Below, one piece after another: positions 20,565-27,427 of a DNA stretch of 30,953 bases. Location: NCBI GenBank assembly GCA_016840855.1, contig JAEORO010000114.1, positions 1 through 30,953 on the forward strand. The letters are read 5' to 3'. The notes beneath the pieces were generated by a model. That model made no database searches. It was not told where the DNA came from and was given only the letters and a program-made list of their open reading frames with translations. Origin of the DNA: Candidatus Thorarchaeota archaeon (GTDB taxonomy: Archaea > Asgardarchaeota > Thorarchaeia > Thorarchaeales > Thorarchaeaceae). Each line of letters opens with the position of its first letter. Within the stretch, counting starts at the first letter, position 1. The translations under genes were made by a program, and so were the position numbers.

Positions 20565-21704
20565 TTGAAGGCTCTGATTTTACAAGTGCTATCAGATCCA
20601 GGCCTTCTAGGATTAGTATTAGGAGTATTCGTAGGTACTCTAGTACTTATTTGCTGTTATCTTACATTAAAAACAGAGGTAAGTTACGAACCAGCAGAGT
20701 ATGAGGAGTCAGAAGTACCATCGGGTTTACAAAGATTATACAAAAGTGAAACCTACAAAACAGGATTCGAAAGCAGTGATTTATCATCAATCAGATTTCA
20801 TCGTAAAAGACCAATACCAGGAGTAGCACAAGCACTTGGTGAAGTTGAGTCTTCAGAGGATATAGGCAGTCCGAGGAAACGAATTCAAAAACCACAAGAG
20901 TTACAGGTCAGAGTACTTCGTGGAGGGGAGTTTATTGGCAACAGAATGAGATTCAAGGTGAAAATACTAAATGATTCACCATATACTATCACAGATGTCA
21001 CAGTCTTTTTGCTTTCATATCCAAAATCAGCCTTAAGATTAGAATCCGACGATGACAGTGCTTTCTTTACAAAAATTGAGCCAGGAGGGACCAGAAGTCC
21101 AAGTTTTGATTTTCTACCTACTCAGGATTGCGTTAAAGGAGAGATTGTAGCAGGAGTTTCGTTCCTAGATATTGAAGGTAATCCGCAGATGAAGAATACA
21201 AAACCGTTTATCATAAGATCAGTTTGCGATTTGTTACTACCTCAAAAAGTATCACCACAAGATTTCGAACTAAAATTGAAAAAGCTTGAATGTGGTGAAG
21301 TAGTCGTCAAGATTGAAGAATGGACTCCAGAGGAGATGTTTGAAAAAGCACTTCGAATCGTGGATGAATCAAACTTCTTTGAAGTCAGTAGTAAAACTGA
21401 GGAATCACGTGGTGTGCTGTTTTCCAAGATAATGGGATATGCAAAAGGAAAATACACCGGGAAAGAAATTGGTGTTGAGATTGATATATCTGGACAAGCT
21501 GGAAAGAAAGGTACATCATGCACACTCCGTGTATCAGGAGAAGATCAAGCGATGATTCTCCCAGCAATTGATGACTTGAGAGAACGTCTCAATGCATGGC
21601 TCTGCCCAATGTGCTCCAGCCCACTCTCACTTGAAAATGTTGAAGCTCTACGAGATGGGGGAATAGTGGAATGCTCATTTTGCAAAGTGTCTATAGGTCG
21701 CTGA
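20565..21704 (+). CDS. Membrane-anchored protein with beta-COP/adaptin appendage-like domain and C-terminal Zn ribbon (paralog 1)
   Basis: N-terminal TM ending LICCY, linker with RPIPGVA, conserved [15 protein letters not shown]...VCDLLLP...[13 protein letters not shown] domain, CPMC-x19-CSFC. Paralogy is seen directly; the fold assignment is by-eye inference. Confidence 0.7.
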   Translation: [379 protein letters not shown]

Positions 21705-21728
21705 TTGAAGGAATTCTATAACGATCAG

Positions 21729-22583
21729 TCAAGGTTGGTATCGTTTCTGTATCAACAGACAAATAATTACGACTTCTACGATTATACCTGCCAGAAGGAA
21801 GCTGGTAGGTATCCATGCATCAGGGATATTAATCAATGTTTCAGTAGAGTTAGGAGGAGATGTTGTAGTAGGAGAAGTAGAAGAAATGGGCGGTTGAGTT
21901 GATATACTTGTAGTAGTAGAGGAGGTAGGTGGAGAGGTTGTGGGTATATGGACAAGATAGTCAGTGAATGATAGAAAATTACTATCAGTGAGAATAGTGG
22001 TATTAGTATAGACAATTGAAGGATTTGTGTTGTTTATATATTTCTCTTGAGTTTCGATAAGAACACCAGAGCTCGCATCATAAAATAAATTGAGTTCAAT
22101 ATCAAATATTTGATCAGAATCTTCCTCAAAATTCAAACGATAGCAACTAAAATTACCTAATGGCACGCTTCGATTTTCAATAGACACTATTGTGAACATC
22201 ACATCATAAAATGTTACATTTGTTGTGAGACCCCAGAAGGTAGTATCACACCATAAATTACCAATTCCACTCAATGTGTAAAATTCTTCTGGAAAGACAA
22301 TCTCATATTGGAATTCATCGGTATTATTGAATATATGAGTAACTTCAATTGATTCTTGACTAACCCATTTATTGACAATGTAGGTCATATTATACCATTT
22401 GTTAATGGTCCCATAACCATCATATTCTGCTTGTGTATAGTGAAGAACAAGACCAAGCGGAAATTCATCTAAATCCTGGGCAGTCACTTCCACTGAAATA
22501 AGACCTGCAAGAATTAAGCCCAATATCAAGTAAAAGCATACTCGTTTGTTCTTGTTCGAATGAACTAGATTCTTAGGCTCCAC
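21729..22583 (-). CDS. Secreted type I membrane (glyco)protein, paralog of 19497-20303
   Basis: Shares AQ...FP(I/L)GL...Y, Y....W V, L(T)xxN(L/F) and TM GI.(I/V)E motifs with 19497-20303; S/T/P-rich stalk; sequons. Confidence 0.75.
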   Translation of the reverse strand: MEPKNLVHSNKNKRVCFYLILGLILAGLISVEVTAQDLDEFPLGLVLHYTQAEYDGYGTINKWYNMTYIVNKWVSQESIEVTHIFNNTDEFQYEIVFPEEFYTLSGIGNLWCDTTFWGLTTNVTFYDVMFTIVSIENRSVPLGNFSCYRLNFEEDSDQIFDIELNLFYDASSGVLIETQEKYINNTNPSIVYTNTTILTDSNFLSFTDYLVHIPTTSPPTSSTTTSISTQPPISSTSPTTTSPPNSTETLINIPDAWIPTSFLLAGIIVEVVIICLLIQKRYQP

Positions 22584-25936: not shown

Positions 25937-25999
25937 CTGAATGCCCTGGTCAGGAAAACCCTATATCATCCTGCGCAAATTCAAGCATGAGGGAGGACT

Positions 26000-27427
26000 T
26001 TGAACGACCAAAGTTATTCTTGGGACACTAGAAGAATAGCAATCCTTGTAGTTACATCAATCGTTGTTAGTTTCATTTTTGTTATGGCGTTCTTAGCATT
26101 CCCCAATGAATCAGCATGGGTAACATTGGGCATGCTTCTACTAATCTTCATTGTGGGTGTGACTTTTATGGTCTTGTCGAGTGCTCCAAAGCTTTCTCAT
26201 GAGGAAAAATATGTATCAAGAACACTGCGAGAGGAGGAAGTGAAACCTGCTTCAGCTCAAGTTCGAAGTGATGAAAAGGAGATCAGCATAATTGCTGTTT
26301 GTGCAATCTTTTTACTAATTTCCATGTTTATCTATATTTTAACTATGGGATCGGGTGGTCTAACATCGTCAATTGGATTCATGACACTTGCATTCGTTGC
26401 TATCGCCTGTATGTGCATGGCATGTTGCTATGAACCAGGAATGAATGGAAAAGAACAAACATCATCGGGAAAAGGAATCACTGCACCTTCCTCAGCAACC
26501 TCAGGAAGAAAAGTCCGTATAAAACAAACTTCAGAGCAATACGAGAGCCTTGCAAGAACTAGTACAGGTCAGTTGTTCTGGCAAACATTAGAAGCTCAAG
26601 AACCAGTCCAGAAGAGAGTCACTTCGAAAGTAAGAGCTCTGCGAGGTGGAGAGATTATTGGAGGTCGTTTCAGATTCAAAGTAAAGGTTCTAAACGAAAG
26701 TCCTTTCACAATTAATGATGTAACTGTATACATCCTATCATACCCCAGAGATACGTTGATCCTTAAGGCCGAGGATGATGATGTATTCTTCTCTAAGATT
26801 GAACCTCAAGGATTTCGAAGTCCCTCCTTTGATTTCCTTCCGACTCAGGATTGTGTACGAGGCGAAATCGTTGCAGGTGTATCCTATGTTGACGCATCTG
26901 GAAAAGCCCACACTTTGACAACCGAGTCTTATACAATCAGAGCTGTTTGTGACCTTTTGCAACCTGAAGCAATCACACCAAAAAGATTCGAACTGAAGCT
27001 CAAAGAACTTGAATCGGGTGAAATCCTATTAAAGGTTGAAGAATGGACACCTGAAGAGATGCAAGAAAAAACACTACGTGTTCTTAGTGATTCAAACTTC
27101 CATGAAGTTTCAAGTGAGGAATCTGTAACAGATGATGTGTTGCATTTCAGAGTTACAGGCTGGGCTAAAGGAAAGTATACTGGAAAGAATGTGGGGGCTG
27201 AAATCTTCATCACAGGTCATGCAGGACAAAAAGGAGCAAGCTGTAGAATCCGTGTGGCAGGTGAAGACGATGCCATGATCCTGCCAGCTATTGACGACTT
27301 GAAAGAAAGACTCTCTGCATATCTATGTCCAATGTGTGGCAGTAAACTTACGTTGGAAAATGTAGAGGATTTGAAAAAGGGTAAGATTGTTCGTTGTCCA
27401 TTTTGTAATGTTTCTATTGGGAGATAG
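26000..27427 (+). CDS. Polytopic (about 4 TM) appendage-like domain / Zn-ribbon protein (paralog 4)
   Basis: TTG start with GGAGG SD; two hydrophobic hairpins, the last ending ACMCMACCY; lacks PIPGV; same C-terminal domain and Zn ribbon. Confidence 0.7.
   Translation: [475 protein letters not shown]

Follow-up and report, generated by a model that had tools for sequence, protein, structure and literature searches.

RESULTS

Four neighboring genes encode membrane proteins with a shared C-terminal domain

Four neighboring genes of a Candidatus Thorarchaeota archaeon encode membrane-anchored proteins that end in a conserved domain, predicted to resemble the appendage ("ear") of the coat protein beta-COP and followed by a zinc ribbon; these domains are likely docking tails rather than a demonstrated coat. 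The window, by which we mean the whole stretch of DNA analyzed, spans positions 1-30,953 of the forward strand of contig JAEORO010000114.1 (assembly GCA_016840855.1), and gene absences reported below refer to this genome at 92% completeness. As proposed in the first-pass annotation, four paralogs are present: four intact open reading frames (ORFs) on the plus strand share a C-terminal region of 264 amino acids (aa) that is 64 to 74% identical between pairs (tblastn E <1e-110) and closes with CxxC...CxxC. All six archaeal segments quoted in that annotation occur in the protein encoded at 23712-24839. The genes and the domains of the protein chosen for modeling, paralog C, are as follows.

19497..20303, minus strand: 268-aa upstream gene, a distant paralog of the 284-aa surface protein (23% identity, 263 columns, E 2e-4)
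20565..21704, plus strand: paralog A, 379 aa; one transmembrane segment (TM) at about aa 8-37 ending in CC; PIPGV linker; ear at aa 115-346; zinc ribbon
21729..22583, minus strand: interleaved predicted surface protein, 284 aa; N-terminal hydrophobic stretch, Thr/Ser-rich stalk, C-terminal TM
22716..23627, plus strand: interleaved EamA-like transporter, also found in 14 of 17 related array loci
23712..24839, plus strand: paralog B, 375 aa; N-terminal TM; basic PIPGV linker; ear at aa 111-342; zinc ribbon
24860..25936, plus strand: paralog C, 358 aa; TM, linker, ear and zinc ribbon
24878..24943, plus strand: paralog C, TM helix (aa 7-28) with CCC at its end, then a basic stretch
24950..25129, plus strand: paralog C, disordered linker (aa 31-90; pLDDT 49-56) containing PIPGV
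25142..25450, plus strand: paralog C, Ig-like beta-sandwich subdomain (aa 95-197), from the model
25466..25825, plus strand: paralog C, platform (helix-grip) subdomain (aa 203-322); first helix with FxxxL versus the eukaryotic FxxxW
25835..25915, plus strand: paralog C, C4 zinc ribbon (C326, C329, C349, C352), invariant across 133 sequences
26000..27427, plus strand: paralog D, 475 aa; four TMs, the last Cys-rich; linker without PIPGV; ear at aa 211-441; zinc ribbon

The N-termini had been described as unrelated; they are divergent, but PIPGV recurs in three of the four linkers (A, B and C; 86/133 family members) and the end of the last TM bears at least one Cys in all four paralogs. At least two Cys at this position are seen in 73 of 127 family members versus 6 of 217 genome-wide. 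The real start codon of paralog B perhaps lies a few codons further downstream. The proposed gene cluster holds in that the paralogs are neighbors, but not in being contiguous, with the transporter gene and the opposite-strand surface-protein gene lying inside it; the 284-aa surface protein matched no Pfam or NCBIfam family. Sigma-70 promoter patterns, a set ill-suited to archaea, occurred at chance level (25 versus 23.5 expected), and one hairpin was found at 27484-27498, 3' of paralog D.

In a quick, midpoint-rooted tree, the window paralogs each join the gene at the matching array position in a congener (support 98-100). Grouping thus follows position across genomes, and on that ground concerted evolution of the array was rejected. 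A profile search of the whole genome recovered five full ears, one platform-only protein and a few Ig-only proteins. The fifth full ear is a soluble paralog of ∼760 aa with zinc repeats, encoded on another contig (C85) and adjoined by a platform-only protein; soluble paralogs of this size are widespread in the family.

The predicted fold is closest to the beta-COP appendage

AlphaFold2 predicts a TM helix, a disordered linker, an Ig sandwich with a platform, and a zinc ribbon. The sandwich-plus-platform fold suggested earlier is thus present in the models, and the full-length model recovers the suggested order of TM, hinge, ear and zinc ribbon; docking of PIPGV onto the ear was not seen in that model, which is of paralog C. 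Two models were obtained (pLDDT 87 and 86; pTM 0.62-0.64), and the beta-COP appendage ranked first among solved structures in both. The best match, chain H of 9qpq, reached Z 19.8 (rmsd 2.4 Å, 220 aa, 15% identity; Foldseek E 3.6e-10, TM-score 0.70), ahead of alpha-adaptin (Z 16.5), gamma-COP (Z 14.4) and BBS9 (Z 12.5), which bears out the earlier naming of beta-COP, although part of this lead comes from how the two subdomains are angled, a feature of only moderate certainty in the models. Model residues 1-232 align to residues 726-953 of beta-COP, whose appendage comprises residues 711-953 (PMC12494035). Lacto-N-biosidase, transglutaminase and TRAP, whose generic Ig folds scored Z up to 12.7, were discarded as the best match because they cover the sandwich alone.

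Like the beta-COP appendage (Pfam Coatamer_beta_C plus Coatomer_b_Cpla), the ear of the window proteins has a predicted sandwich and platform in equal relative orientation and sits on a long flexible linker. Unlike beta-COP, the window proteins have neither a HEAT trunk nor a known heterotetramer, and they carry a TM ahead of the ear and a zinc ribbon behind it. The AP-2 alpha and beta2 and gamma-COP appendages (1w80, 3hs8, 1e42, 1r4x, 1pzd) share the two-subdomain fold (Z 14.1-16.5) but differ in subdomain angle (rmsd 4.4-6.2 Å), and AP-2 and gamma-COP belong to soluble complexes recruited to membranes, whereas the window proteins are membrane-integral.

Sequence searches connect the ear to Asgard rather than eukaryotic proteins

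No sequence search retrieved beta-COP, and with profiles A1, A2, A3 and A5 the PDB yielded neither adaptin nor COP matches up to E 10. Pfam and NCBIfam scans of the four proteins returned just zinc-ribbon or TM noise, with no appendage family at the curated cut-off; PF07718 found nothing real in the genome, and among 29 aligned relatives Alpha_adaptinC2 matched only two (best E 0.01). Since these searches gave no eukaryotic ear, the link to eukaryotes is a purely structural one. The FxxxW motif lies in the first helix of the appendage platform (PMC2262067). At the corresponding position, which was assigned from secondary structure, W four residues past F occurs in 0 of 133 family members, with F in 129 and L in 122. 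With this peptide-binding site lost, eukaryotic-type peptide binding is therefore not to be assumed.

Homology within the Asgard archaea could be traced by profile comparison. HHalign against a Helarchaeia/Lokiarchaeia appendage group with PCI-, Vps28- and longin-type fusions gave a probability of 99.7 (E 8.5e-26, 249 columns), and the profile of that group finds the window proteins at E ∼1e-20 to 1e-22; by this measure the two sets are homologous. A TM lies upstream of the domain in 105 of the best 150 representatives, and the ectodomains of relatives include PKD, DUF2341, NosD, SBBP and LVIVD propellers and a solute-binding protein. The same domain is thus reused at the C-terminus of many different surface proteins. 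Homologous ears are also fused to PCI/UFL1 plus Vps28 (P0310, P0312-P0314), EAP30/Vps36 (P0239), longin-like, TPR, LRR, HEAT and BBS-like propeller domains, and because its fusion partners are so varied the ear appears to be a shuffled Asgard docking module. The ESCRT-type fusions fall mostly in distant subfamilies (20-26% identity); among 52 representatives scanned, EAP30 was matched in one and UFL1 in two.

The ear likely faces the cytoplasm

The positive-inside rule is obeyed by 45 of 47 ectodomain-bearing relatives (mean K/R 5.0 on the ear side versus 0.3), and N-glycosylation sequons number 2.8 per 100 aa in ectodomains versus 0.8 in ears. The charge bias of paralog A is uninformative, with one K/R before the TM and one in the 30 residues after it. 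Judging from the topology of these relatives, the ear of the window proteins likely faces the cytoplasm, as the first-pass annotation had supposed. None of the outcomes that it had named as counting against its reading, namely, loss of the sandwich-plus-platform fold, an unrelated best match or an extracellular domain, came true.

Searches of the genome for trunk, mu and sigma subunits stay below the cut-off

The first-pass annotation had gone further and seen in these proteins a candidate proto-coat, with the tethered ears as a set of adaptors. In a primitive vesicle coat of this kind, the ears would polymerize or bridge to an outer propeller or solenoid layer, as the beta-COP appendage does, and drive budding. 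The closest fold is specifically that of beta-COP, whose appendage in COPI connects the adaptor to the outer coat (PMC5482573), and the four paralogs are co-oriented. The genome also encodes a Sec23/24-like protein and has 25 small-GTPase matches and a weak mu-homology match (E 7e-4), and HEAT-ear proteins are present in other Asgard genomes. Against this, Adaptin_N had no match in the 92%-complete genome; the mu match is below the cut-off and lies in a DUF11-repeat protein, and the sigma match (E 0.009), also below the cut-off, lies in a frame that also matches GTPase. A WD40 search found only two short proteins (297 and 314 aa), and no HEAT-ear combination occurred among 5,468 six-frame ORFs of the genome. 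Adaptin_N matches occurred in 11 of 41 family genomes; at six of these loci no ear was present in ORFs of >300 aa, the matches being ordinary HEAT repeats, and those at L114-L117 adjoin acyl-CoA ligase-like or ABC genes. A Pfam scan of the window found no gene for a coat trunk, a mu or sigma subunit, a GTPase or an ESCRT protein. Array copy number varies from 1 to 4 across 17 related stretches (some ended by a contig boundary), unlike that of a fixed-stoichiometry coat, and the beta-COP lead itself hangs partly on the moderately fixed subdomain angle. With FxxxW absent as well, we regard a proto-coat as unlikely.

Nor did the idea that a TM anchor has replaced the trunk fare well. The window proteins matched no HEAT trunk, their N-termini consisting of TM and disordered linker, and in the quick tree their ears group among ectodomain-TM-ear surface proteins, with HEAT-ear proteins on a separate long branch. 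We found nothing to show that the window proteins, which are neither adaptin nor coatomer subunits, form a coat.

DISCUSSION

A shared fold by itself shows no function, and we slightly favor the view that ear and zinc ribbon, held on a tether, serve as a docking hub for a conserved soluble partner, probably of ESCRT-linked machinery that sorts membrane proteins. The TM would anchor each paralog while the predicted ear and ribbon, flexibly tethered, extend into the cytoplasm and recruit this partner; the ear would be an address tag built into the membrane protein, where eukaryotes put it on a separate adaptor. The window members have nearly no ectodomain and would therefore act as bare membrane tethers, concentrating the partner or co-clustering with ectodomain-bearing relatives. 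Conservation of the ears while the N-termini diverge is consistent with such a hub, as are the ESCRT-type fusions, the published ESCRT contexts of archaeal ears and the presence of ESCRT-II, ESCRT-III and Vps4 genes in this genome. These genes, however, sit on another contig (C19), and the array is unlinked to ESCRT genes; the ESCRT fusions are rare and in distant subfamilies, the canonical FxxxW site is lost, and the charges of paralog A are uninformative.

Eukaryotic ears are interaction hubs (PMC2262067, PMC5482573), but the GAE domains of BBS proteins heterodimerize instead of binding peptides (PMC7018513). By this precedent, the ears might dimerize, with the TM-ears clustering and capturing the soluble zinc-repeat ear protein encoded on C85, which is widespread and has a platform-only neighbor. 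BBS9 (6vbu chain 9; 3.6 Å, 189 aligned) matches the model over both subdomains, PTHB1_GAE and GAE_BBS1 gave weak Pfam matches in 3/29 (best 3e-4) and 4/29 members, and the Asgard homologs include propeller-ear-ribbon proteins with BBS7/BBS2-like propeller matches. BBS9 nevertheless scores far under beta-COP and alpha-adaptin. Unlike BBS2, BBS7 and BBS9, the window proteins have only the GAE-platform part, with no propeller or coiled coil, and the full-length model has no helix ahead of the sandwich, such as BBS pairing uses; pairing of this kind seems improbable to us.

We likewise doubt a role outside trafficking, in which the tail would couple surface adhesins or receptors to the cytoskeleton or to regulators and the short forms would be TM adaptors or decoys. 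The tail does lie behind adhesin-like and solute-binding ectodomains, TIR, LRR and TPR occur among the domains of soluble fusions, and the Cys cluster at the TM end could mediate clustering or metal/redox sensing. Yet the window shows no fusion to, and no neighboring gene for, a kinase, cyclase or regulator, and papers on archaeal ears report proteins that join ear, Vps28-C and longin as well as ear genes placed in ESCRT loci, contexts that suggest ESCRT. In Methanobacteriales, Meth_adaptin proteins have an IG plus TBP-fold appendage, one with a zinc ribbon and one joined via a TM to a GOLD domain (10.1101/2024.02.06.579148). Their genes lie in ESCRT (Vps4, ESCRT-III) loci, whereas the window genes lie outside such loci and lack GOLD. 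In the Atlas, our top match is a cluster with Methanobacteriota as its commonest phylum (0.95), a candidate counterpart of Meth_adaptin.

The beta-COP resemblance of archaeal ears, including TM-ear, ear-zinc-ribbon and a Thor COPB1-like entry, is essentially already in print. In Data S3, a 2026 ESP table (PMC12962969), cog.002051, with a Thor representative, has a COPB1 match at residues 100-340 and agrees with the window proteins in lineage, best structural match and domain position, by layout rather than by sequence; cog.003318, with a COPB1/adaptin appendage at residues 464-737, has the same domain position as the C85 paralog, again in layout. Table S3 of PMC10307638 holds 33 Alpha_adaptinC2 rows, none of them Thor; its rows 118-120 (Helarchaeales) have hydrophobic N-terminal segments ahead of the ear, and a zinc ribbon terminates many of its Lokiarchaeales rows. 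The entries of these two tables do not take up the tandem arrangement of the genes, the Cys cluster at the TM end or the reuse of the tail. Given these precedents, and with function approached by inference, the present finding is of moderate value.

In COPI and AP complexes it is the ear that recruits partners, and where it came from matters for the assembly history of eukaryotic coats. In the archaeon studied here, a complete two-lobed ear of predicted beta-COP shape exists as a free module on membranes. It is small enough for expression, crystallization and use as bait, and the question of what the ear bound before there were coats therefore becomes testable. A bolder and rather improbable reading is that Thorarchaeia unite cargo and adaptor in a single polypeptide: a beta-COP-type ear would be the cytoplasmic sorting tail common to many surface proteins, and the array paralogs, which lack ectodomains, would nucleate at the membrane a minimal cargo-selecting coat together with those tails and a soluble ear protein. 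If that is true, the ear would have served membrane sorting before its fusion to a HEAT trunk and before Arf control.

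The four tethered paralogs and their predicted fold

The four ear genes are present as the first-pass annotation described them:
20565-21704, plus strand: paralog A, one N-terminal transmembrane (TM) helix
23712-24839, plus strand: paralog B, one N-terminal TM helix
24860-25936, plus strand: paralog C, one N-terminal TM helix
26000-27427, plus strand: paralog D, four N-terminal TM helices

The region common to all four comprises the last 264 residues (64-74% pairwise identity), to which a soluble fifth paralog, encoded on contig C85 of the same genome, is 39-44% identical. A named-homolog search gave 295 matches among 2295 candidates, and the best 120 of these were nearly all annotated as Thorarchaeota hypothetical proteins. 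The N-termini, previously called unrelated, proved to be related in part, sharing PIPG[VI] (86/133 aligned family members) and Cys at the end of the last TM helix. Of 127 family members, 99 have one or more such Cys and 73 have two or more; among 217 comparable proteins encoded by the window's genome the figures are 37 and 6. Kin are not independent in these counts. The window's Cys cluster, on the likely cytoplasmic side where the last TM helix ends (24878-24943 and the corresponding stretches of paralogs A, B and D), resembles eukaryotic S-acylation sites.

An AlphaFold2 model from a 36-sequence domain alignment (mean pLDDT 87, pTM 0.62) predicted an all-beta subdomain (residues 2-103), an alpha/beta platform (109-228) and a C-terminal zinc ribbon. 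Modelled at full length with 133 sequences, paralog C is predicted to have a TM helix at 7-28 and disorder at 31-90, followed by the same folded part. Foldseek ranked 9qpq_H, the beta-COP chain of a COPI structure, first for both models (E = 3.6e-10, TM-score 0.70; E = 1.3e-11), and VIA-align to this chain gave Z = 19.8 (rmsd 2.4 Å, 220 aligned residues, chain range 726-953), with lower values for alpha-adaptin (16.1-16.5), gamma-COP (14.2-14.4), beta2 (14.1-14.2) and BBS9 (12.5). The matched range is the beta-COP appendage, since the available part of PMC12494035 sets the appendage at 711-953. A Foldseek-free search of 48,161 representatives, whose listing did not contain 9qpq_H, had alpha-adaptin, gamma-COP and an AP-2 chain with beta2-ear numbering on top (Z = 16.1, 14.2 and 13.7). 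An Atlas feature search, taken as a source of leads only, put an unnamed archaeal cluster first (0.95) and then appendage clusters (0.82-0.87). We conclude that, as judged from predicted models, the sandwich-plus-platform fold with beta-COP as its best match is real and had been correctly recognised; the lead of beta-COP over other appendages owes partly to the inter-subdomain angle.

The likeness has limits. The window ear is only 15% identical to the beta-COP appendage of 9qpq_H, and no eukaryotic ear matched the Thor ear in any profile search. At what would be the position of FxxxW, given as the platform motif of eukaryotic ears in the available part of PMC2262067, the aligned family members mostly carry FxxxL (122/133) and never FxxxW (0/133).

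A shuffled module, probably cytoplasmic where membrane-bound

Searching 1.84 billion representatives with the profile yielded 764 matches at E 0.001. Among the best 150, some of them fragments, a hydropathy rule placed a TM helix before the ear in 105, and 47 had a soluble stretch of ~150 aa or more before it. K/R was richer on the ear side in 45 of these 47, and sequons were 3.5 times denser in ectodomains than in ears, in agreement with a cytoplasmic ear. Pfam scans covered 21 long proteins from the loci and 52 representatives picked by hand for a long tail, the absence of a TM helix or an unexplained N-terminus. Ahead of the TM helix they found extracellular PKD, DUF2341, NosD, SBBP, LVIVD and solute-binding domains, and in soluble members LRR, TPR, HEAT, WD40/BBS-like propeller, PCI/UFL1, TIR and EAP30 domains; PCI/UFL1 plus Vps28 fusions to ears were also found. 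From these ectodomains, the K/R bias and the soluble fusions we conclude that the ear is a module shuffled among proteins and, where membrane-anchored, likely cytoplasmic. Such a module might instead be a signalling or cytoskeletal tail, and the TIR fusions would suit the former; we consider this reading unlikely.

Three further layouts were observed. Proteins with a beta-propeller (weak BBS7/BBS2/ITFG2 Pfam matches), ear and zinc ribbon resemble BBS subunits (L052-L056, L076; P0236, P0243, P0262). Another Asgard family joins a short HEAT repeat, linker and ear, some with the ribbon, much like a miniature adaptin; in the tree these ears are distant from those of the window (L061-L065; P0247; P0318-P0320). 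Two tandem ear-ribbon units per protein also occur (L044:4503-6590, minus strand; P0121-P0125).

Distribution, gene neighbourhood and origin

Of the phylum's 301 genomes, 141 match the ear: 72/76 in its own family, 54/68, 5/5 and 6/7 in three further families, and no genome at all in several (0/28, 0/21, 0/19). On 80 non-family genomes the profile gave 24 positives, 22 of them preselected as earlier matches; only 2 of 58 earlier-negative genomes turned positive, weakly. More distant ears will escape such a sequence-based survey.

Seventeen related array stretches carry one to four ear genes each, and their neighbours, grouped by BLAST clustering, include EamA (14), a PRC-barrel gene (12), small surface proteins (10) and aldehyde oxidoreductase (9). 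Within the window we found no HEAT, longin, GTPase or ESCRT genes. Other features are:
19497-20303 and 21729-22583, minus strand: small surface proteins interleaved with ear genes, in 10/17 related loci; the closest Atlas clusters (0.90) hold unnamed archaeal proteins
2251-12394, minus strand: an ordinary NiFe hydrogenase/heterodisulfide-reductase-like cluster (MvhADG, HdrABC-like), then PEPCK and aldehyde ferredoxin oxidoreductase (Pfam)

In a quick IQ-TREE analysis of 99 ears, midpoint-rooted and with SH-aLRT as its only support measure, each paralog groups with its positional counterpart (98-100). All four lie in a clade of 46 rows (100), itself nested in a group of 57 rows (90) that otherwise consists mainly of ectodomain-TM-ear proteins. 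A long branch, whose position this tree does not fix, carries five HEAT-ear proteins. The proposal that a TM anchor replaced the trunk is not supported: given the placement among ectodomain-TM-ear proteins, ectodomain loss would be a more economical origin of short TM-ears than trunk loss in this midpoint-rooted tree.

Related proteins in print

The window's tethered ears belong to an already known kind of archaeal protein. In their available parts, the sources report numerous Asgard proteins that join Vps28/Vps23 to adaptin and COPI-subunit C-terminal domains and to UFL1 (10.1101/2020.10.19.343400); separate Asgard AP domains (PMC10307638); Asgard ear + Vps28-C + longin fusions and, at Methanobacteriales ESCRT loci, appendage proteins with a zinc ribbon and GOLD-TM-appendage proteins (10.1101/2024.02.06.579148); and, among the Data S3 rows of PMC12962969, cog.002051 (COPB1 over 100-340) and cog.003318 (464-737), each with a Thor representative, and a Loki BBS9 entry, cog.006470. 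The available part of Table S3 of PMC10307638 has at least 33 Alpha_adaptinC2 rows, none Thor among those listed, with hydrophobic N-terminal segments ahead of the ear in three Helarchaeales rows and ear plus zinc ribbon in many Loki rows; row 111 resembles family representative P0339 by eye, and this group of appendage proteins is homologous to the window's ears. The available parts of 10.64898/2026.10.28.762692 and 10.1101/2025.11.06.686947 hold nothing on the Thor ear family, and among top-ranked titles and abstract openings on Asgard ears none is devoted to the Thor TM-ear array, which supplements may describe. Eukaryotic ears are treated, in the parts available, in PMC2262067, PMC7018513, PMC5482573 and PMC12494035.

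Candidate partners and a possible role

The source genome encodes 25 small GTPase matches, one Sec23/24-like protein, ESCRT-III, Vps4 and ESCRT-II (contigs C19 and C32), a weak Vps28 match and two short WD40 proteins. It yielded no Adaptin_N or HEAT-ear protein, and its mu and sigma matches fell below the cut-off. That the tethered ears are true coat subunits, as their beta-COP-like fold might suggest, is improbable, and a coat function for them is unsupported. Candidate partners and other proteins of interest in this genome, all on the minus strand, are:
L001:4700-6973, contig C85: soluble Cys/His-repeat paralog, 757 aa, 9 CxxC, full ear and ribbon at its end
L001:2762-4624, contig C85: soluble Cys/His-repeat paralog, platform-only domain and ribbon at its end (E 7e-5)
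G000:C182:4326-5093: TM-linker-Ig-only protein, 255 aa, matched by the ear profile's sandwich part (E 4e-7)
G000:C84:91-753: TM-linker-Ig-only protein, 220 aa, matched by the ear profile's sandwich part (E 5e-4)
L110:4538-6319, contig C243: soluble 593-aa DUF11-repeat protein, weak mu-homology match

The last resembles, by eye, two Sifarchaeia Alpha_adaptinC2 rows in the available part of Table S3 of PMC10307638. The two TM-linker-Ig-only proteins are possibly platform-less tethered ears. The adjoining C85 genes encode the best candidate partner of the window's ears; the ~760-aa Cys/His-repeat ear protein recurs across the family, and P0324 has similar repeats ahead of an ear. Another reading is a BBS-like ear-ear pairing with the C85 protein, to which we assign little probability. 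What we observe is architecture, from which we infer each functional step. From fold, topology, conservation and fusions, we lean slightly towards a tethered docking hub, in which the membrane-bound ear would dock a conserved soluble partner whose machinery would probably be that of ESCRT-linked sorting.
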